Origin: an uncultured Gammaproteobacteria bacterium | GTDB taxonomy: Bacteria; Pseudomonadota; Gammaproteobacteria; Steroidobacterales; Foliamicaceae | Reading direction: 5' to 3' | Assembly: GCA_951828235.1 (NCBI GenBank) | Contig: OX639965.1 | Location: 1,668,212-1,732,211, forward strand | Length of the DNA stretch: 64,000 nt | In this document: piece after piece, positions 5,150 to 26,348 of the stretch | Layout: the number at the start of each line of letters is the position of its first letter | How positions within the stretch are numbered: the stretch's first letter is position 1 | Position numbers and translations under genes: made by a program | The notes under the pieces: generated by a model | Told to the model about the DNA's origin: nothing | Seen by the model: only the letters and a program-made list of their open reading frames with translations | Database searches by the model: none

Positions 5150-6418
5150 TGCATCAGCGGCGACCGCCGGTATATCTCGTTGACGGTTCATCGGAGGGGC
5201 CAGCGCCCACGCTCCTCGCCGTCCAGAAGCCCCAGTCCCCCGGGCCAGTATGTTCAACGCGGCATTGATATCCGCATTGCCGTAACGCCCGCAGGCGCGG
5301 CACTCGAAGCTGGCCTGCGAGCGCCGGTTGTCCTTTGCGACATGCCCGCAGTGCGAGCAGGTCTGAGAAGTGTAGGCCGGATCAACCTCGATCAGATCGG
5401 CGACCTTGTAGGCAAGCTTGTCGCGCAAGCCGCCCCAGCCGGTGTCGAGGATCCCCCGGTTCAGCCGCGCCTTGGCCCGCACCCTGCTGCCGGGGCGCCG
5501 GGCTGTGCCCTTCGCCGACTTCGTCATCGCCTCGATGTCCAGCTTCTCGACCACTACCGTTCCGGCGGTGGATACGAGATCACGGCTGGCGTGGTGCTGC
5601 CAGTTGGCGCGGATCATCGCCAGCTTCCTCGAGACCGACGCCCGTCGATGCCGGGCCAGGGCCCTTCTCTTCGAGCCCTTCCTGCGCCGGTCCATCATCC
5701 GCTGGTAGCGGTTCTCGCGGCCCTGCAGCTTCGCGACCTCGGGCGTGTGCAGGATCTCTCCGCCGCTGGTGGCGACTTGGCCGACGTTGCGGTCAAGGCC
5801 GAGGGTACGGCCATTGTCGTGCGGCGCCACGAGCTCGTCGGGAACCTCGTAGCACACCGTGCAGTACCAGCGCCCCAGCACGCGCTTGACCACGGCCTGC
5901 TTCGGCACATGGGCGTCATAGGGGTTGCCGCCCGAACGCCGCAGTACGCACCAGCCGATCTTCGGAATCCAGAGCCGGCGCACGCCGGTGATGGAGTCGA
6001 TGCGTATGGTCACGTTCTGCGGGATCGTGAACGAGTCATCGCCCCGGCGGGCCTTGAACTTCGGGAAGCCCGCCTTCGGATCGGTGAAGGTCCGCTTCCA
6101 GGCATCGGCCTGGCGCTTGAGGGCATAGCGCACCGGAGCGCAAGGGAGAGACTGTAGCCAAGGGGTCTCGGCACGAAGTTCCTTGAACCGCTTGCCGAGC
6201 GAGAAGAATGTGAGCGAGGGCTTTGCCGGGCGCTCGAAGCACATTCCAAGAAGCGTGTCCTCGCAGAAGCGCGGAGTGTCGCAATGCAGCCGGTACTGTT
6301 CCTTGGTCTCCGCCAGCACCCGGTTCCAGACCCAGCGGCCCGCGCCAGCGGTCTGAGAGACCTTCTCCGCCTTCGCGGCGCTGCCCGGGGCCAGGCGGAA
6401 TGTGATGTTGCGGTGCAT
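5141..6418 (-). CDS. tnpB: TnpB (OrfB) RNA-guided endonuclease of the IS200/IS605-IS1341 type; appears intact.
   Basis: RuvC-like residues in LGLDRNVGQ, VVVEKLDIE and NADINAALNI. Zinc ribbon CSHCGH...CRACG. 425 aa. Confidence 0.9.
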   Translation of the reverse strand: MHRNITFRLAPGSAAKAEKVSQTAGAGRWVWNRVLAETKEQYRLHCDTPRFCEDTLLGMCFERPAKPSLTFFSLGKRFKELRAETPWLQSLPCAPVRYALKRQADAWKRTFTDPKAGFPKFKARRGDDSFTIPQNVTIRIDSITGVRRLWIPKIGWCVLRRSGGNPYDAHVPKQAVVKRVLGRWYCTVCYEVPDELVAPHDNGRTLGLDRNVGQVATSGGEILHTPEVAKLQGRENRYQRMMDRRRKGSKRRALARHRRASVSRKLAMIRANWQHHASRDLVSTAGTVVVEKLDIEAMTKSAKGTARRPGSRVRAKARLNRGILDTGWGGLRDKLAYKVADLIEVDPAYTSQTCSHCGHVAKDNRRSQASFECRACGRYGNADINAALNILARGTGASGRRGAWALAPPMNRQRDIPAVAADAAT

Positions 6419-6472
6419 AAGACTATTTTATCAAGTATCACCTTGAAATGCTTGAGGAAAACATGGGATCTT

Positions 6473-6494
6473 GCAACTTAGAGGTATAAGCCCC
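6473..6494. repeat. Terminal inverted repeat of the tnpB element (end upstream of the tnpB start).
   Basis: The reverse complement GGGGCTTATACCTCTAAGTTGC matches 19 positions of the 5128-5149 repeat when two 2-nt gaps are allowed. Confidence 0.75.
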
Positions 6495-10904: not shown

Positions 10905-11237
10905 TTACGCGGATATCGGTGTCCGACTCTTCGTCAGCGCCATTGACTCATTGTCCAGAGGCAGTGCTTCCTCCGCCAATTGGACAGCGTGGTCCGGGTC
11001 GATGGCTTTCGCTGCCCGGGTCATTTGCGCGAGGAACCGCTCGCGTTGCCGGTTGGCCAGAAAGTGCTCCAGCGCAATCCGCGCAATCAGAGACTTGGGC
11101 TGCCTCGACAGCCGGGCCTCTTCGTTCAGGCTCTCATTGAGGCGATTAGTGAGCCGGATGCTGAGAATGGACACGCACGCACCAGATGTAATGCACTCTG
11201 TTGTGCGAATTGTAGGCTTCAGGCTGACTGCCGGCAA
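10905..11237 (-). CDS. Ribbon-helix-helix (CopG-like) antitoxin / DNA-binding protein.
   Basis: VSILSIRLTNRLNESLNEEARLSRQPKSLIARIALEHFL has an RHH pattern. TTG start with AAGGAG 4 nt upstream. Confidence 0.6.
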   Translation of the reverse strand: MPAVSLKPTIRTTECITSGACVSILSIRLTNRLNESLNEEARLSRQPKSLIARIALEHFLANRQRERFLAQMTRAAKAIDPDHAVQLAEEALPLDNESMALTKSRTPISA

Positions 11238-11455
11238 TTTTCTCCTTCGTGCCCATGAATTCGAAGGTGCGTCGAATTAGCTAAGAGACCTGCATGTGTT
11301 TGGGAGTTTTTCGCGTCTCATTTTTGGTTTCGACGCTTATCATGTCGGTCTACAATTCGAAACATGAGTGCAAGATCGGTGGGAATCCTCTCTCGAATCC
11401 AGGAAGGATTTACTCCGGCACTCTCAAACGGATTGACTGGAAACAGGGATGAGCT

Positions 11456-13258: not shown

Positions 13259-14343
13259 TGGCGCTGCCAGCGTTACTTCCGGTGCCGGAAATCCACGAAA
13301 GACTGGGAACAATCTTCCCGGAAGGCACGGCGCACCGCAATTTTCTGATACGTGAGATGGCCGCCAAGACGGTATTCACCATGCTTTATGTCGGGGCGCT
13401 AGAAGGAACAGAACGCTGGTTGCGCCCCGATCAAGTCACGCGGATGACCGACCATCAAGCCGCATCAACAAACGAAGAAGATCGTATTGCATGGCGCGAG
13501 GCGTCGCTGCGCCCGACGCATGAGTCCATCGCGGGCAGGTGGTACGCGGCCAATACGCGAGAACCCATCCGGGATGAGACACTGCGTGAAGGCCTTGTAC
13601 GAACCCGAGCCGTACAAGAACGCGTAGACTTGCCCACTACATCGCCGCGTCCACGATACGCGCTGGCTCCCGCATTCGCTGCTTTGTTCGATCCGGCGTT
13701 GGCAGGAGAGGCGCTAGACGCAATGATCGCTGCATGGCAAGAAGCAAACTTGTCCACGGGCGCGCTGGCACGCATTGCGATATTGCGCCGGGGCACGGTC
13801 GCCGGCGAGGAACGAGTGCTCGTCACATTTCCGAACGGAGAAACCCGGCACATGGAGCCCGGGCCGAGCTCCGTCATATCCAAAGCCGTCGTGGAGGAAT
13901 TCGCGAGCCGATTTCTGGAGCGCCCCGGTGTCATTCTGCTGAGCGAAAGCCGCAACAAAATTGTGGCGCGTGACGACGAACTTGCACAGGCCATCGGCCT
14001 GGAAATCCAGCCGGACCTGAACCTGCCCGACATAATCCTAGTTGACCTGGGATCAGTCGACCCATTGCTTGTCTTCGTAGAGGTGGTCGCCACGGATGGA
14101 CCAGTCAGCGAATCGCGCAGAGATTCGCTGATGTCGGTGACTACGGATGCTGGATTCGCGGAAAGCCAAGTGGCGTTTGTAACGGCGTATGCAGACCGCA
14201 GCCATGCAGCGTTCAAGCGTTCTGTAAGCGAACTCGCATGGCGATCCTTCGCCTGGTTCATGTCAGAACCCGATCACATCATGGTGCTGAGGCAAGGAAC
14301 CGCTACTACGATGGCGAAGCTATCAGGACTCATGAATCAATAG
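13258..14343 (+). CDS. Type II restriction endonuclease, BsuBI/PstI family.
   Basis: The N-terminal LLPVPEIHERLGTIFPEGTAHRNFLIREMAAKTVFTMLYVGA is characteristic of that family as I recall it. It is translationally coupled to the methylase. Confidence 0.7.
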   Translation: MALPALLPVPEIHERLGTIFPEGTAHRNFLIREMAAKTVFTMLYVGALEGTERWLRPDQVTRMTDHQAASTNEEDRIAWREASLRPTHESIAGRWYAANTREPIRDETLREGLVRTRAVQERVDLPTTSPRPRYALAPAFAALFDPALAGEALDAMIAAWQEANLSTGALARIAILRRGTVAGEERVLVTFPNGETRHMEPGPSSVISKAVVEEFASRFLERPGVILLSESRNKIVARDDELAQAIGLEIQPDLNLPDIILVDLGSVDPLLVFVEVVATDGPVSESRRDSLMSVTTDAGFAESQVAFVTAYADRSHAAFKRSVSELAWRSFAWFMSEPDHIMVLRQGTATTMAKLSGLMNQ

Positions 14344-21844: not shown

Positions 21845-21886
21845 GCGGGGTGGCTGCCTCCGGGAGGTTTAACCGAACAATTATCG

Positions 21887-21894
21887 CTTATTTT
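21887..21894. repeat. Target-site duplication, left copy (CTTATTTT).
   Basis: An identical 8-mer directly abuts the outside of both inverted repeats. Confidence 0.85.
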
Positions 21895-21919
21895 GGGGAT
21901 TATATACCTAACTTGACAA
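21895..21919. repeat. Inverted repeat (rpoD-proximal end).
   Basis: GGGGATTATATACCTAACTTGACAA. Confidence 0.95.
21899..21904 (-). promoter_or_regulatory. Outward-facing consensus -10 hexamer (TATAAT) inside the IR, pointing toward rpoD.
   Basis: The minus strand reads TATAAT, ending 4 nt from the element tip. No good -35 sits at 17-bp spacing (TGCACC). Confidence 0.3.
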
Positions 21920-21933
21920 CAGGTGCACAAAGA

Positions 21934-21959
21934 GCAGCGCCCCTCGAAAGGGGCGCTGC
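21934..21959 (-). terminator. GC-rich hairpin, probable terminator of the minus-strand cargo operon.
   Basis: GCAGCGCCCCT-CGAA-AGGGGCGCTGC. On the minus strand it is followed by TCTTTGTG. Confidence 0.5.
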
Positions 21960-21990
21960 AATAGTATCCTAGAGTAAAGACCGCAACACG

Positions 21991-22134
21991 CTACATTACG
22001 AACCCAAGGAATGCGAAAATGAACGCTGCCAGGAACATGAGGAAAGCCACGACTTTACGGTCTTCATAATGCAGTCCCATAGTCAGAACCAAGAGTGCGC
22101 ACAGCCCCAGCCCAAGAGCGATATTCAACAACAT
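21991..22134 (-). CDS. 47-aa two-helix membrane peptide (hypothetical).
   Basis: Hand translation is MLLNIALGLGLCALLVLTMGLHYEDRKVVAFLMFLAAFIFAFLGFVM. It starts 2 nt after the upstream stop and is below the ORF-track size cutoff. Confidence 0.4.
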   Translation of the reverse strand: MLLNIALGLGLCALLVLTMGLHYEDRKVVAFLMFLAAFIFAFLGFVM

Positions 22135-22136
22135 TG

Positions 22137-23021
22137 TTAGTCGCGCTGGCGCCTTTCCCACTCCCTGAACTGTTCCAGGAATCGATCGAGCCGCCCCAGC
22201 GTATGATCCGCCGTATCCTCCTGGCTCAATGCATCTGCTTCTTCGCGGGCCAACGCGACCAGCACATCGATAATCTGCTGCCTCTCAGCGTCACTTAATG
22301 CATTCCATTCTTCTTCGGTCAGGCTGTCCAGATCGGCCAGTATCTCGACAACGGTTCTTGAGCTACTCCCAGAGGATGATCCGCCGGGCGCTTCTGTTCG
22401 GTTGCTAGGCCCGGTCGTTCGTGGATTTTTGCTCAAGCAATCCAAATACGCACCAGCGGCTGTGCCTGTAACTGCGCCTTGCAAGATTGCACTGCAAGGA
22501 TCGCGTAGCGCGTAAATTACATCGTTTTCGTTGATGTAAACATATATGTCCAAGGGATCCCTTCGGGTCGTCGCCTGGATTCCCCAATACGTTCCAATGG
22601 CGGTTGCCGCGGCGTGTATGGCGCCAACAGATTCCCTCAAGAACCATCCTGCCAAAGCTATAGATACTGTGTTTTCCGCAGTGGACATTGTGTAGGAAAG
22701 AGTCACCATTCTTCGCATGTCGTCAGTGACCATGTAACAACGTCCATCGGCAACGTAGTAGTCATATTCTTCCCGAACGATGAGTTCCCATTCATCTTCG
22801 TAATGTTCACGCCCGCGCCATGAAGACCCGTCTCTTGCATCGGCCCAACATTCACTCGGGGTGTCGTAGCCGTAAACATTTGTGGTGGCCCGCGCTGAAA
22901 ATACGCCCACAAGGAAATACAGTGCCATGACCAGCAATAGAAATATGCCGATACGTTCCCCTGTTTTTGACAGCGCCCATTGATGATAAGTCCGCCAAGC
23001 ATTACGAATCTTGTTTGTCAT
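22137..23021 (-). CDS. Hypothetical 294-aa protein with an N-terminal membrane anchor and an acidic coiled-coil C-terminus.
   Basis: ATG at 23021 (MTNKIRN) is preceded by AAGGAG. The longer track ORF (to 23255) runs through the tRNA gene and is rejected. I recognise no domain. Confidence 0.6.
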   Translation of the reverse strand: MTNKIRNAWRTYHQWALSKTGERIGIFLLLVMALYFLVGVFSARATTNVYGYDTPSECWADARDGSSWRGREHYEDEWELIVREEYDYYVADGRCYMVTDDMRRMVTLSYTMSTAENTVSIALAGWFLRESVGAIHAAATAIGTYWGIQATTRRDPLDIYVYINENDVIYALRDPCSAILQGAVTGTAAGAYLDCLSKNPRTTGPSNRTEAPGGSSSGSSSRTVVEILADLDSLTEEEWNALSDAERQQIIDVLVALAREEADALSQEDTADHTLGRLDRFLEQFREWERRQRD

Positions 23022-23162
23022 TTCCAAATTCTCCTTACAATGAGGAATGTGCCCCGCTGGTGAATCATGCTCTCCGTGCGCAATTTGATAGTAGCACAGT
23101 TCAATTGACAAGATAACGCGCGTTATCAGGTATACTTGATATCGCCAATGCCCAAAAGGAGA

Positions 23163-23261
23163 CGGAGGCGGCGGGATTCGAACCCACGGTAGGTATTTTG
23201 CTTTACGGGCACCTACACCGGTTTTTAAGACCGGCGCATTAAGCCACTCTGCCACGCCTCC
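23163..23261 (-). tRNA. 99-nt class II tRNA with anticodon UAA (Leu by anticodon) but Ser-like architecture, G73 discriminator and an about 30-nt variable region.
   Basis: Hand-folded cloverleaf: GGAGGCG / TG / GCA-GAGTGGCTTAA-TGC / G / CCGGT-CTTAAAA-ACCGG / TGTAGGTGCCCGTAAAGCAAAATACCTACC / GTGGG-TTCGAAT-CCCGC / CGCCTCC / G. No encoded CCA. Confidence 0.75.
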
Positions 23262-23289
23262 GCAGAGCGGTTGCGGAGCATAGCATCTT

Positions 23290-23323
23290 GGGGCGAGAGG
23301 GTTGATCCTTCTCGCCCCTTTTT
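23290..23323 (+). terminator. Intrinsic-terminator-like hairpin plus T-run, with no obvious upstream plus-strand gene.
   Basis: GGGGCGAGA-(11 nt)-TCTCGCCCC-TTTTT. Confidence 0.45.
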
Positions 23324-23665
23324 ACTATGTGATATATTTTCCCACGAGAAATTCGCTGGTATCCCCTATGTCGGGTTGCCCGCTGAATACAACAGCCGTT
23401 TGCAGCCTGGAGTAGCTATCCGGACTTGGTAAACAAGCGGGATTTTCGCTACCAGTGAATTTCTCAAAGGCCCGGCGCTTTGCCAGGCCAAAACAAGCGA
23501 GCCTCCAACGAGGATAAGTCGTCGGAGGCTCTTACCGCGCAGAGAGTTGAATACCACACAGCGCGGCAGCGGCATTGTAGCCTCTGCAACGAGCAGGCTT
23601 TCTCTCTGCGCCTCAGCCGACCCCGCTTTCCAAGGCGGGGTCGGTTCCAATAAGAGGAAGAGAGC

Positions 23666-24169
23666 ATGTTTGAGAAGAAAGCAGATCCTGGCGGGGCTAT
23701 TTTCGTCGGGATACTTCTAATCGTTGTCGTTCCACTTCTGACAGGGATGTGTTCTGTTGCTTATCCACAAGAAAGCAACAGAATCCTGACTAAAGAGCAG
23801 TCACCCGCCGTGCAAGCAATTAACACGGCGCTAGAGAACGTGGACGCCGCAATTGTGGAAGCAACGGTAACGCGAGACTATTTTGTTGCGCAACTTGCCG
23901 CACCTACATTCAACACAGCGAAGATAGAAGAGAAAAGCCACGCGCATATGGCAAAAATTACGGCAGCGGACGAAAAATGGCGTATTGCTTCCGAGTTGCT
24001 TCAAGAGACGGCAGAAAACGCGCCTCATGCCTTCAAGAGTATTGAACAATTATGGGCGACACGTGATCGCCTGCAAGCCGCGCGCGACCGTATTACGGCA
24101 TTGGGAGAAGATGCGCTAAAAGCACTGGACCGAAGCGCGTCCCGTTTACAGAGACAGTTGGAACGATGA
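23666..24169 (+). CDS. Hypothetical membrane-anchored coiled-coil protein (167 aa).
   Basis: N-terminal TM segment (AIFVGILLIVVVPLLTG). ATGA overlap with the downstream nuclease gene. AGAGGAAGAGAG RBS region. Confidence 0.55.
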   Translation: MFEKKADPGGAIFVGILLIVVVPLLTGMCSVAYPQESNRILTKEQSPAVQAINTALENVDAAIVEATVTRDYFVAQLAAPTFNTAKIEEKSHAHMAKITAADEKWRIASELLQETAENAPHAFKSIEQLWATRDRLQAARDRITALGEDALKALDRSASRLQRQLER

Positions 24170-24810
24170 AGAAAACCACTCCTGTTCTCTTCGCATTACT
24201 GGCCTACGCCTGTCTTGCCACGGGCGAAGATGCACACGCCCAGCTCGCAACAGCAGCCACCGTAACCGGCGCCTATGATGGAGACACGATTTACGTTACC
24301 GCGGCTGTTTGGCCCAACATGCTTTGGGCTGGCAGTGTTCGCGTTCTCGGCGTAGACACACCGGAGATTCAGGGGCGCTGCGTACAGGAAAGCACGCTGG
24401 CGCTTGAGGCACGGGATTACGTTCGGGATCTGTTGACTGACGAGAGTGTTCTTTTGACGGATGTGAAGAACGACAAATATGGCGGGCGTGTCCTGGCGCA
24501 TGTCTTTTTACAAGCGGAAGACAACCAGCAGAATCTTGCTGCTCTACTTATCGAGCGAGGCTTGGGGCGTGATTATGATGGCGGCACTCGGCAAAGCTGG
24601 TGTGGAGATGAGCAGGAATTGCCCGAACAGGCGGCACCAGTTGATGCCGATGTGAACCTGGACGATCCTCTTGCACTATATGACGATAACAATAACGGCA
24701 GGATTACTTGTGCTGAAGCAAGAAAGCACGGGATTGCGCCCGTGAAAAGCGACCATCCTGCTTACCGCTATATGAACGATAGAGACAGGGATGGGGTGGT
24801 TTGCGAGTAA
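24166..24810 (+). CDS. Secreted thermonuclease (SNase-like) with a C-terminal Excalibur calcium-binding domain.
   Basis: Signal peptide, DGDTIYV, LGVDTPE, KYGGRVLAHVF, and a C-terminal DDNNNGRITCAEA...DRDRDGVVCE. Confidence 0.8.
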   Translation: MKKTTPVLFALLAYACLATGEDAHAQLATAATVTGAYDGDTIYVTAAVWPNMLWAGSVRVLGVDTPEIQGRCVQESTLALEARDYVRDLLTDESVLLTDVKNDKYGGRVLAHVFLQAEDNQQNLAALLIERGLGRDYDGGTRQSWCGDEQELPEQAAPVDADVNLDDPLALYDDNNNGRITCAEARKHGIAPVKSDHPAYRYMNDRDRDGVVCE

Positions 24811-24860
24811 TTATCAAGATAACCAAGATAATCTTGTGATACACTCCTTTCCAAGGAGAG

Positions 24861-24933
24861 TGGCCCCGGAGAGAATCGAACTCTCACCTTCCCGTTCGGC
24901 AAACAGGGGCTCTATCCGTTGAGCTACGGGGCC
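24861..24933 (-). tRNA. tRNA-Gly (anticodon GCC), 73 nt, no encoded CCA.
   Basis: Hand fold: GGCCCCG / TA / GCTC-AACGGATA-GAGC / C / CCTGT-TTGCCGA-ACGGG / AAGGT / GAGAG-TTCGATT-CTCTC / CGGGGCC / A. Confidence 0.85.
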
Positions 24934-25085
24934 ACTTCTTCATTCTACTGTTAATGAATGCACGTAACTACGTGCGGCGCTTAATTCGTTGCGCATGAAA
25001 TTTGCGCAAAGAATTACAACAGAATATGTTGTATCATATATTCAACAGTTTTAACTGTAATCATCATCAATATCTGGAGATAACT

Positions 25086-25337
25086 ATGAGCACCAAATCC
25101 AAGCTCAATGGCAGCGTTGATTTGTTGGCTAAAGCAATGCGTCAGGTGTTCACAGAGGCCGTAGAAGAAGGTCTTGTTCCAGTGCGAGAGGACATCAAGG
25201 ACATTCGTGGCGACATCAAGAAACTGAGCGACGGTCTGGACACGACAAACCAGAACATGCAGGCGCAATTCGCGCAACATCGCAAGGACGTGTCGGCAGA
25301 TGTGCGCCAAGCTTTACGGCGTCAGCCTAGCCGTTAG
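25086..25337 (+). CDS. Hypothetical 83-aa helical protein.
   Basis: ATG at 25086 (MSTKSKLNGSVDLL...) with GGAG 6 nt upstream of the ATG. Convergent 4-nt overlap with the transposase stop. Confidence 0.4.
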   Translation: MSTKSKLNGSVDLLAKAMRQVFTEAVEEGLVPVREDIKDIRGDIKKLSDGLDTTNQNMQAQFAQHRKDVSADVRQALRRQPSR

Positions 25338-26287
25338 GCGATCAAGTCCCGGTACATCAGCCGCTTTCCAACTAGGCCAGCGATTACGTTCCGCATCATC
25401 GCGGCGGTATCGCACTCGCGGAGATTGTGACGGCCTGCGAACTCTGTGACGTAACGTTGCAGGTGCTTCCGACTCATCTTGTGGAACGTGCCGGTGTGAG
25501 CACGTTTGAGCATTGACCAAAAGGACTCTACGCCGTTGGTGTGAATCTGCCCATCAACGTATTGTCCGGCGCCATGCTTGACAGCACTATGATTCGCCAG
25601 TCCTCTATAGGCACGCGCTTCGTCGGTAAAGATTGGAGCGCCAGGAGCCGCTGATGCACTTACGAAGCCGTGCAATGTGGGTTTGTCTGTCTTCTCCACT
25701 ACACGAGCCTGAACACGATTACTCTGACGATCCTTTGCGCCGACTACGGCTGTCTTGCCCACGGTGCCGCGACCTGCTTTCAGGCGGTCCTTGACATGTT
25801 TGTTCTTCTCTTTGCCACCCACATAGGTTTCGTCTACTTCCACCGGACCGATAAACTTTTCAATGCCTGATGTGTCCCAAGCCTCGCGTAATCTGTGGAG
25901 CAGGAACCACGCCGTCTTTTGCGTCACTTTCAGATCCCGATGCAGCTTCATGCTGGACACGCCCTTCAAGCTGGTTACATAGAGATAGGTTGCGACCGCC
26001 CACTTGCGCAGTGGCAGGCGGGAACTCTGCAAGGTTGTGCCGGTGCGGACGCTGAAATACTGGCGGCAGTCCGTGCACCAATAGGGCATCGGCTTGCGGT
26101 TCGGGACTTCCTTTGTCGCAGTGCTTCCACAGTGACCGCAGCATCGACCCTCCGGCCATTGTACGGATTCGAACCACTGGACAGCCGTATCTTCGTCGGG
26201 AAACATCTCCATTAGCCTGATGAGCGAGATGCCTTTACGATCTGATTTTCCGGGAGATTTGTGCTTGGACATAATGTATTCCTCCAT
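25334..26287 (-). CDS. IS1595-family DDE transposase (ISXO2-like domain) with an N-terminal zinc ribbon.
   Basis: CCGHCGS...YWCTDCRQYFSVRTGT, VEVDETYVGG, FTDEARAY, HTNGVESFWSMLKR. Alternative start at 26272 (MSKHK). Confidence 0.9.
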   Translation of the reverse strand: MEEYIMSKHKSPGKSDRKGISLIRLMEMFPDEDTAVQWFESVQWPEGRCCGHCGSTATKEVPNRKPMPYWCTDCRQYFSVRTGTTLQSSRLPLRKWAVATYLYVTSLKGVSSMKLHRDLKVTQKTAWFLLHRLREAWDTSGIEKFIGPVEVDETYVGGKEKNKHVKDRLKAGRGTVGKTAVVGAKDRQSNRVQARVVEKTDKPTLHGFVSASAAPGAPIFTDEARAYRGLANHSAVKHGAGQYVDGQIHTNGVESFWSMLKRAHTGTFHKMSRKHLQRYVTEFAGRHNLRECDTAAMMRNVIAGLVGKRLMYRDLIA

Positions 26288-26315
26288 ACGCGTATTTTCT
26301 CAGATTATGCTGGCT

Positions 26316-26340
26316 TTGTCAAGTTAGGTATATAATCCCC
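26316..26340. repeat. Inverted repeat (transposase-proximal end).
   Basis: TTGTCAAGTTAGGTATATAATCCCC is the exact reverse complement of 21895-21919. Confidence 0.95.
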
Positions 26341-26348
26341 CTTATTTT
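26341..26348. repeat. Target-site duplication, right copy (CTTATTTT).
   Basis: Identical to 21887-21894. Confidence 0.85.

Follow-up and report, generated by a model that had tools for sequence, protein, structure and literature searches.

A probable IS1595-family transporter insertion sequence upstream of rpoD in an uncultured gammaproteobacterium, with atypical tRNA genes and a candidate leader RNA among its passengers

The analyzed stretch of DNA (in the following "the window") has a size of 64,000 nucleotides and covers positions 1,668,212 to 1,732,211 of contig OX639965.1 in the genome of an uncultured gammaproteobacterium of the family Foliamicaceae (GenBank assembly GCA_951828235.1). 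Between dnaG and rpoD it contains a segment (21895–26340; all positions given are those of the window) that is very probably one intact, recently inserted transporter insertion sequence (tIS) of the IS1595 family. Transporter insertion sequences carry passenger genes within a single insertion sequence (IS) and are reported to occur in the IS1595 and IS66 families only (bioRxiv 10.1101/2021.05.26.445724). As a transposon the element is thus ordinary and belongs to a clade of a known kind, and the new part is its cargo, which includes recurrent atypical tRNAs and a structured RNA that is absent from Rfam. Related loci that were examined alongside are designated by L-numbers. The boundaries of the element are as follows.

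21887–21894, no strand: first copy of the target site duplication, CTTATTTT, read from the sequence and identical to 26341–26348
21895–21919, plus strand: terminal inverted repeat at the transposase-distal end, GGGGATTATATACCTAACTTGACAA, 25/25 complementary to the other repeat
26316–26340, minus strand: terminal inverted repeat at the transposase-proximal end, found by repeat search
26341–26348, no strand: second copy of the target site duplication, CTTATTTT, read from the sequence

An earlier interpretation made from the letters of the window alone (the sequence-only reading) had described exactly reverse-complementary terminal inverted repeats (IRs), an 8-bp target site duplication (TSD) and the lack of any internal IR copy, and had proposed a windowed G + C profile as a check. 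All of these points were borne out. The two IRs are 25 nt long and 100% reverse-complementary, and the 8-mer CTTATTTT lies immediately outside both of them in direct orientation. When up to three mismatches were allowed, the IR 25-mer occurred exactly twice in the 64-kb window (0 expected from 100 shuffles), and no IR-like copy was found within the element at up to nine mismatches. The element thus delimited comprises 4,446 bp, of which 3.4 kb are non-transposase DNA located between the IRs. Its G + C content is ~52% as compared to ~65% in the genome, with values of 0.44–0.57 inside the element and 0.60–0.70 in the flanks, and because of this difference the DNA of the element appears to be foreign to the host.

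The element combines the features expected of the IS1595 family, i.e., an ISXO2-like/IS1595 DDE transposase, terminal IRs, and an 8-bp TSD, with those of a tIS, namely a single IR pair, passenger DNA, and no second transposase or IS copy. Composite transposons such as Tn10 and Tn5 likewise mobilize passengers and duplicate their target, but the window has one transposase, one pair of 25-bp ends, and no flanking IS copies: only one transposase match was obtained in the 64 kb, no second IS1595 transposase was detected there by tblastn, and the IR 25-mer is confined to the two ends. In comparison with the known tISs of the IS1595 family the element is alike in its single ISXO2-like DDE transposase, its IRs, its 8-bp TSD, its passengers, and the lack of a second IS, and differs in that its cargo additionally comprises tRNA genes as well as a structured leader RNA; no description of either as IS passengers was found in the literature. 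The terminus GGGGATTAT fits the consensus GGnnATTAT of the ISNwi1 subgroup. In ISfinder this subgroup (ISNwi1/ISNwi1+) has 8-bp TSDs, ends of the form ggnnatTAT, a DDEK signature, and sizes of 1.75–4.75 kb, a range that includes the size of the element, which may therefore belong to it, as the sequence-only reading had suggested.

The insertion is located 42 bp before the start codon of rpoD, and its predicted empty site was sought in relatives. Relatives of the RpoD in the window have identities of 85–93%, with the next best matches at or below ~54%. The contigs L080–L084, whose RpoD is 93% and 90% identical, share the gene order rpsU-dnaG-(DUF4345)-rpoD with a spacer of 150–380 bp. When the flanks of the element were joined via a single copy of the 8-mer, a spacer of 167 bp resulted, which is colinear with the uninterrupted 163-bp spacer of L080 (reconstructed window spacer ...GCTTTATGGAAGACAAAAAATAAGCGATAATTG..., L080 ...GCTTTATGGACCGTCAAAAATGAGCGATAATTG...), and the empty site of L080 contains the single-copy counterpart of CTTATTTT. 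The sequence-only reading had predicted such a site and had also named relatives with the tRNAs and open reading frames (ORFs), but without IRs or TSD, as a finding that would speak against it. In L080–L084, neither an IS nor an IR, tRNAs, or cargo ORFs were found at the dnaG-rpoD locus, an outcome that speaks for the insertion.

A transposase scan restricted to one genome per species yielded 79 related loci with 59–70% identity. The clade is thus very large, and its members, almost without exception metagenome-assembled genomes, represent many phyla of uncultured bacteria. The sponge Spongia is named in one of the records, and several other isolate codes are those of sponge microbiome studies. 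Paired ends of the form GGGRATTAT(A/C)...CTTGACA were found in 57 of the 79 loci, with exact 8-bp duplications in 42 of these 57. The 57 elements measure 1,435–6,595 bp (median 2,576 bp), so that nearly all of them carry passengers. One genome contains identical cargo-bearing elements of 2,226 bp at three sites, each flanked by a different duplication (L016, L017, and L018), and L067, L068, and L072 are likewise identical cargo-bearing copies at different sites. Because identical elements occupy different sites with different duplications, these cases show that cargo-bearing versions in this clade transpose as units. Frequent passengers are fusions of N6/N4 DNA methyltransferases with HNH nucleases that are convergent with the transposase gene (L009:1277–2743 in element coordinates, L167:3875–5116, L168:8962–10158, and ~10 others), and L016–L018 carry an ORF that by eye resembles an antitoxin of the Panacea type (DUF4065), with a small membrane ORF after it. 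The closest relative of the window element is L166, a 2,293-bp element whose transposase has 86% amino acid identity and which has an identical 25-nt IR and a duplication of its own, TTCATTTG.

The claim of the sequence-only reading that the passengers moved together with the transposase as one unit thus holds for the clade (L016/L017/L018 and the 42 of 57 exact TSDs). For the window copy, movement as a single piece is inferred, as is the mobility of the 4.4-kb version in general, from the TSD, the empty site, and the relatives. The insertion appears to be recent, because the IRs and the TSD are perfect and the transposase is intact. As an alternative, a ~1.3-kb IS1595 copy could have inserted beside a pre-existing foreign island, with the far IR being the solo end of another copy. 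The small size of L166 despite its identical IR shows that cargo size changes fast in this lineage, and the 4.4-kb version was not found a second time, as would be compatible with such an accretion. However, separate duplications would result from two independent insertions, whereas the flanking 8-mers are identical, as are the IRs at 25 of 25 positions; moreover, none of the 4,454 bp is present in the relatives, whose spacer is reproduced by the junction-to-junction join, no IR-like sequence exists near the 3' end of the transposase gene at up to nine mismatches, and the low G + C content extends across the whole interval. Accretion is therefore considered highly improbable. Still less credible is an assembly artefact, in which a chimeric join during metagenome assembly would have placed a mobile-element contig in the spacer between dnaG and rpoD. 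Host and element relatives do stem almost exclusively from metagenome assemblies, where repeats cause misjoins, but a misjoin would not create an 8-bp target duplication around perfect IRs, and the same architecture recurs with different duplications in 42 independent assemblies.

Several observations nevertheless weigh against the interpretation as one established mobile unit. The exact 4.4-kb element is visible in a single copy, its exact transposase (312 amino acids) was recorded only once in a wider protein search, on a 3.11-Mb contig that is presumably the source itself, and the exact IR 25-mer had no match in the metagenome or viral contig collections. The cargo of L166 comprises only 1.2 kb, and therefore most of the window cargo would have been acquired later. 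Finally, the interpretation of the tRNAs discussed below competes with three alternatives of similar weight.

If the segment is one tIS, the transposase would have bound both ends, and the complete unit of 4,446 bp would have been excised or copied and then inserted at a cut with an 8-bp stagger, located 42 bp before the start codon of rpoD. Repair of the stagger would have generated the CTTATTTT duplication. The unit may be divided into four putative modules. The first would be the IS core with the IR, a promoter with its -35 box in the IR, the transposase gene, and a convergent 83-amino acid ORF, and the second a tRNA with the anticodon GCC that is co-oriented with the transposase gene. The third, on the other strand, would consist of a predicted promoter, a ~160-nt leader RNA, and genes for a 167-amino acid exported protein and a secreted nuclease. 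The fourth would comprise a tRNA-Ser-like tRNA with the anticodon UAA, followed by membrane ORFs of 294 and 56 amino acids and a terminator. Sequence comparison showed these module types to recur in related elements.

The components of the IS core were identified as follows.

25334–26287, minus strand: IS1595-family DDE transposase of 317 amino acids (a 312-amino acid form starts at 26272), PF12762 with E = 4e-41 and NF033547 with E = 1e-57
26294–26322, minus strand: predicted transposase promoter with the -35 box TTGACA within the IR, consensus match only
25086–25337, plus strand: helical ORF of 83 amino acids that converges with the transposase gene and overlaps the 3' end of the latter, identified by tblastn and clustering

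The transposase scored 140.9 bits against PF12762 (cutoff 27) and 195.2 bits against NF033547 ("IS1595 family transposase"; cutoff 75), in agreement with the earlier assignment of the gene abutting the right IR to this family and with its being the only transposase gene in the window. The profile PF12760 for an N-terminal zinc ribbon reached 21.6 bits, below its cutoff of 25.4, although all 58 clade members compared have C50, C53, C71, and C74. In the clade alignment D152, D222, E254, and K261 are conserved. Since the protein retains 71 of 73 residues that are near-invariant in an alignment with 57 clade members, including the four cysteines, D152, D222, and E254, it is intact and looks functional. 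According to tblastn, at least 14 related loci contain homologs of the 83-amino acid ORF, which had no match to a curated family in Pfam or NCBIfam; these homologs adjoin the transposase gene or converge with it (e.g., L010:11211–11432, L008:12539–12751, and L019:11331–11558). They share the motif NGSVDLLAKAMRxVFTEA and formed family F7 in the cargo clustering, and the ORF is a conserved putative accessory gene of this IS clade. A second family of small ORFs (~70 amino acids, motif DLxGATPETLARALxR) was observed in ~30 related elements that lack the 83-amino acid ORF (e.g., at element coordinates 943–1161 of L065), where it takes the same position, overlapping the 3' end of the transposase gene on the opposite strand.

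The predicted transposase promoter is sigma-70-like (TTGACA, 17 nt, GAAAAT with an upstream TG) and matches the consensus at 10 of 12 positions. In L013 (13031–13079) and L037 (14447–14496), the inward TTGACA of the terminal IR forms the -35 box of the promoter that precedes the RNA motif described below. The IR thus seems to drive the cargo at one end of such elements and the transposase at the other. At the rpoD-proximal end of the window element (21845–21919), the IS separates the apparent -35 box from the GATAAT -10 box of a promoter located close to rpoD in the relatives, and a hybrid outward promoter is predicted with TTGTCA in the IR and CAAAAT across the junction, with a terminator just inside the IR. 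Expression of rpoD, which encodes an essential sigma factor, may consequently now depend on the IS end. Elsewhere in the window, the string CTTGCAACTTAGAGGTATAAGCCCC at 6470–6494, upstream of an ORF of 491 amino acids, resembles the IS terminus; it was rejected as an IS remnant, as it reads as an ordinary -35/-10 promoter, and its likeness to the IS end is probably due to the fact that the IR itself is built like a promoter.

Two tRNA genes were found among the passengers.

24861–24933, minus strand: tRNA with anticodon GCC, 73 nt, acceptor stem GGCCCCG/CGGGGCC, discriminator A, detected by ARAGORN and by RF00005 with 62.7 bits
23163–23261, minus strand: class II tRNA with anticodon UAA, tRNA-Ser-type body, 99 nt, discriminator G, detected by RF00005 with 59.5 bits

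The gathering score of RF00005 is 29, and a further tRNA covariance model that was built in this analysis scored tRNA(GCC) with 77.7 bits and tRNA(UAA) with 39.3 bits. ARAGORN detected tRNA(GCC) only and missed tRNA(UAA), which has a variable arm of ~30 nt that appears in the Rfam alignment as an insertion of ~28 nt in the variable region. In this alignment the stems of tRNA(UAA) are canonical, with 7 bp in the acceptor stem and 5 bp in the T stem. For comparison, the tRNAs present in the related loci served as references. With the host tRNA-Ser(UGA) of L168, tRNA(UAA) shares the D arm, the T arm, and G73, but differs from it in the anticodon loop (CUUAAAA as compared to CUUGAAA) and by 12 additional nucleotides in the variable arm; it shares 68 of 88 positions with tRNA-Ser and 53 of 84 with tRNA-Leu(UAA). 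The long variable arm, G73, and the D and T arms are those of a tRNA-Ser, while the anticodon is not a serine anticodon, and the Leu-type body and A73 that would mark a tRNA-Leu are lacking, the discriminator being G. Bacterial leucyl-tRNA synthetase requires A73, and seryl-tRNA synthetase ignores the anticodon. According to these identity rules and given its Ser-type body with G73, tRNA(UAA) is predicted to be charged with serine and not with leucine. It looks like a recent derivative of an ordinary tRNA-Ser(UGA) that arose by a single base change in the anticodon and has an enlarged variable arm.

The nearest relatives of tRNA(GCC) are not host tRNAs but IS-borne tRNAs with the anticodon GCU in L006 (75%) and L051 (73%). 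These sister tRNAs have a short class I body. A GCU anticodon on such a body is not expected for a serine decoder, and no seryl-tRNA synthetase should charge it. The discriminator A73 together with G2:C71 and C3:G70 in tRNA(GCC) itself is not the bacterial identity set for glycine. In both window tRNAs the terminal CCA is unencoded, whereas it is encoded by the checkable host tRNAs in related loci. Short tRNAs with the anticodons GGA, UGA, or GAG are carried by other elements of the clade.

The remark in the sequence-only reading that tRNA genes had not been described as IS cargo was not contradicted by the literature searched, in which no description of them as IS passengers was found, and within the clade they are recurrent and no one-off. 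They were detected in 11 of 80 loci: ARAGORN and the covariance model together identified nine tRNAs within seven further TSD-bounded elements (L006, L008, L010, L012, L019 with two, L027, and L058 with two), and five more hits were counted just downstream of the transposase gene in three loci with unpaired ends (L021, L022, and L051, with two tRNAs listed for L021). The orientation is the same as that of the transposase gene in 14 of 15 cases, and the density amounts to ~5.7 tRNAs per 100 kb inside the elements as compared to at most 1.3 outside. In addition, L058 contains a degenerate tRNA-like sequence (599–670; 50.7 bits) between the IR and the start codon of the transposase gene, i.e., within the transposase leader, a possible sign that tRNA-like folds act in cis in these elements.

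The explanation ranked first, tentatively, is that the window tRNAs are co-transcribed processing or stability elements, or drifting passengers, whose anticodons are no longer held by decoding; this reading is possible, without commanding even odds. Codon supplementation, which is the usual explanation for tRNAs on phages, plasmids, and integrative conjugative elements, would instead have tRNA(UAA) read UUA/UUG as leucine and tRNA(GCC) read GGC/GGU as glycine in the service of the low-G + C element. UUA and UUG indeed account for 30% of the leucine codons in the element genes (7 UUA) as compared to 8%, with zero UUA, in 2,078 flanking host codons; those in the genes of the transposase and the 83-amino acid protein are located at positions occupied by Leu, Ile, or Met in homologs, and both tRNAs score far above the Rfam threshold. 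These observations are offset by the Ser-type body and G73 of tRNA(UAA), which differs by one base in the anticodon loop from tRNA-Ser(UGA) and for which serine charging is predicted, and by GGC being the commonest glycine codon of the host already (129 of 222), which would make a supplement unneeded. The missing glycine identity set of tRNA(GCC), the GCU anticodons on class I bodies in its sister tRNAs, and the unencoded CCA of both tRNAs, unlike that of the host tRNAs, also argue against a role as ordinary decoders, and codon supplementation thus appears doubtful. The window tRNAs resemble those of phages, plasmids, and integrative conjugative elements in being located on mobile DNA with a base composition unlike that of the host, but differ from such tRNA arrays by the 4.4-kb DDE IS as carrier, their low number (one or two), the mismatch of body and anticodon, and the lack of CCA.

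As a further alternative, the tRNAs could be active with a wrong identity, causing codon-specific mistranslation (serine at UUA/UUG, and possibly arginine at AGY in the case of the GCU relatives) or acting as decoys or replacements against tRNA-cleaving toxins or defence nucleases. The mismatch of body and anticodon in tRNA(UAA), and the class I tRNAs with GCU, GGA, UGA, and GAG anticodons in related elements, would fit this idea, as would the defence-type cargo of the latter (the methyltransferase-HNH fusions and the putative Panacea-type antitoxin). A precedent exists in the allo-tRNAs of Acidobacteria and soil metagenomes, which combine a Ser-type body and its long variable arm with Leu (UUA/UUG/CUN) or other non-Ser anticodons, are located near toxin-antitoxin and transposon-related genes, accept serine, and in some cases are suspected to be unused in translation (Mukai et al. 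2017; PMC5389517). They are defined by a 12-bp acceptor branch with 8/4 or 9/3 bp in acceptor and T stem (PMC5389517), whereas tRNA(UAA), although alike in its Ser-type body, long variable arm, and Leu anticodon, has the canonical 7/5 arrangement. Serine at UUA/UUG would moreover harm the transposase of the element itself at conserved leucine positions, and no recognizable anticodon nuclease or toxin was found in the window cargo with Pfam, NCBIfam, and PADLOC. An active role of this kind is regarded as unlikely.

The second unusual passenger is a structured RNA motif.

23340–23500, plus strand: structured RNA motif of ~160 nt, candidate 5' leader, covariance model R3 with 104 bits and E = 3e-21
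23346–23361/23450–23465, plus strand: helix P1, covariance model
23363–23365/23373–23375, plus strand: helix P2, covariance model
23379–23383/23437–23441, plus strand: helix P3, covariance model
23395–23397/23428–23430, plus strand: helix P4, covariance model
23404–23412/23418–23426, plus strand: helix P5, covariance model
23469–23476/23482–23489, plus strand: 3' hairpin, covariance model
23290–23318, plus strand: terminator-like hairpin between tRNA(UAA) and the RNA leader, 12 bp followed by TTTTT, found by consensus scan and as an inverted repeat

Within the spacer 23262–23665, a stretch of ~120 nt is conserved in many related elements according to blastn and nhmmer. A first covariance model detected 26 copies in the initial loci, a conserved core of 20 nt led to 81 metagenome loci with strong scores in 61 of them, and the rebuilt model found 91 copies, 72 of which are distinct (e.g., L013:12871–13030 and L006:12074–12235, both on the minus strand, and L098:4660–4822 on the plus strand). 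The predicted shape combines a three-way junction with a long closing stem that covaries and with the invariant loops UGAAUA, GAAUAG, GGGGUAGCUCCCC, and AACGGCCCGGC. In the 72 distinct copies 88% of the alignment cells pair, as compared to ~40% when the partners were slid by one to three columns, compensatory changes occur in 31 of 37 pairs, and the covariation score is 0.46 as compared to 0.06–0.08 in the controls, figures that are somewhat inflated by the fitting of the alignment to its own model. At most positions of the closing stem all four Watson-Crick pair types are found. A minus-strand orientation was rejected, as for 44 of 57 copies the opposite strand gave the better fold (p = 2e-6) and the mismatches in P1, read in the minus-strand orientation, comprise 95 A-C as compared to 24 G-U; from the folding and this asymmetry it follows that the RNA lies on the plus strand of the window.

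In Rfam 15 the motif region of the window had no match at E ≤ 1, the best match of a consensus-like motif copy reached 18.9 bits at a gathering score of 70.4, and no paper on the motif was found in the literature. Other explanations of the conserved stretch were considered and rejected: by inspection no U tail follows the 3' hairpin, as an intrinsic terminator would require; the spacing is wrong for the GG-N10-GC of a sigma-54 promoter; the R'/R'' cores of an integron attC site are lacking; and the multi-branch structure with invariant loops does not agree with a miniature inverted-repeat transposable element.

Upstream of the motif, at a fixed distance, a TTGAC -35 box and a TAnnnT-like -10 box are located, and downstream it is followed by a GC-rich hairpin and then by a Shine-Dalgarno sequence and an ORF. 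A crude rule assigned signal-peptide-like N-termini to 41 of 69 such ORFs as compared to 11% of control ORFs; apart from encoding predicted exported proteins, the genes that follow the motif are mutually unrelated. An IS1595 transposase gene is present in the locus for only 17 of the 61 metagenome copies. Dependence of the motif on this transposase was therefore rejected, and the motif is rather an independent promoter-leader module that is often picked up by these IS. Some loci contain two motif copies, each before a different ORF (L012:11320–11476 and 13274–13439; L120:642–808 and 5484–5646; L123:10789–10959 and 11147–11314), which is consistent with a reusable promoter-leader cassette. The motif resembles riboswitch-type leaders in its location between a promoter and the Shine-Dalgarno sequence or start codon, its multi-helix junction, its invariant unpaired nucleotides, and its covarying stems; it differs by the lack of an Rfam match, by its unrelated downstream genes, which are unusual for a metabolite sensor, and by its many copies on IS1595 elements. 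Our best guess is that it is a cis-acting 5' leader that controls genes of exported proteins. In the window it precedes the 167-amino acid ORF and the nuclease gene, which belong to the remaining features of the element.

23666–24169, plus strand: ORF of 167 amino acids with hydrophobic N-terminus, first gene after the RNA motif, from the ORF list
24166–24810, plus strand: SNase-type nuclease with C-terminal Excalibur Ca-binding domain, predicted to be secreted, PF00565 with E = 9e-10 and PF05901 with E = 4e-10
22137–23021, minus strand: ORF of 294 amino acids with N-terminal hydrophobic segment, from the ORF list, the start being chosen downstream of the tRNA
21991–22161, minus strand: hydrophobic ORF of 56 amino acids, from the ORF list
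21934–21959, minus strand: terminator-like hairpin that closes the unit of the 294- and 56-amino acid ORFs just inside the IR, consensus scan, 11-bp stem with 9 GC pairs and T-rich tail

The cargo ORFs were compared with the Pfam, NCBIfam, PADLOC, and PHROG profiles. The nuclease additionally matched the endonuclease family phrog_452 (4e-20) and the PADLOC model SNc (4e-9), and its N-terminus is signal-peptide-like by eye, whereas the ORFs of 56, 294, and 167 amino acids had no match in any of the four collections. The inventory given in the sequence-only reading, with two tRNAs, a nuclease, and small ORFs (which have 56, 294, 167, and 83 amino acids according to the ORF list), was correct as far as it went, but the structured RNA and the atypical nature of the tRNAs had escaped it.

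The element is a useful textbook case, namely a tIS with clean boundaries whose empty site can be seen in a close relative. The ~160-nt RNA motif is a covariation-supported candidate for a new family of regulatory RNAs that is tied to genes of predicted exported proteins and can be tested directly. With regard to the clade as a whole, it is conceivable, if rather unlikely, that this phylum-crossing and apparently sponge-associated group of IS1595 tISs serves as a vehicle for RNA genes, combining active mismatched tRNAs (a Ser body with UAA, a short class I body with GCU) that recode rare codons or counter tRNA-targeting toxins with a hitherto undescribed riboswitch-like leader for genes of exported proteins. 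If it is true that IS routinely ferry tRNA genes, above all those with conflicting anticodon and identity, the smallest mobile elements could alter the decoding capacity of their hosts, and IS-borne mismatched tRNAs would represent a new route to codon reassignment, mistranslation, and escape from tRNA-cleaving defences.

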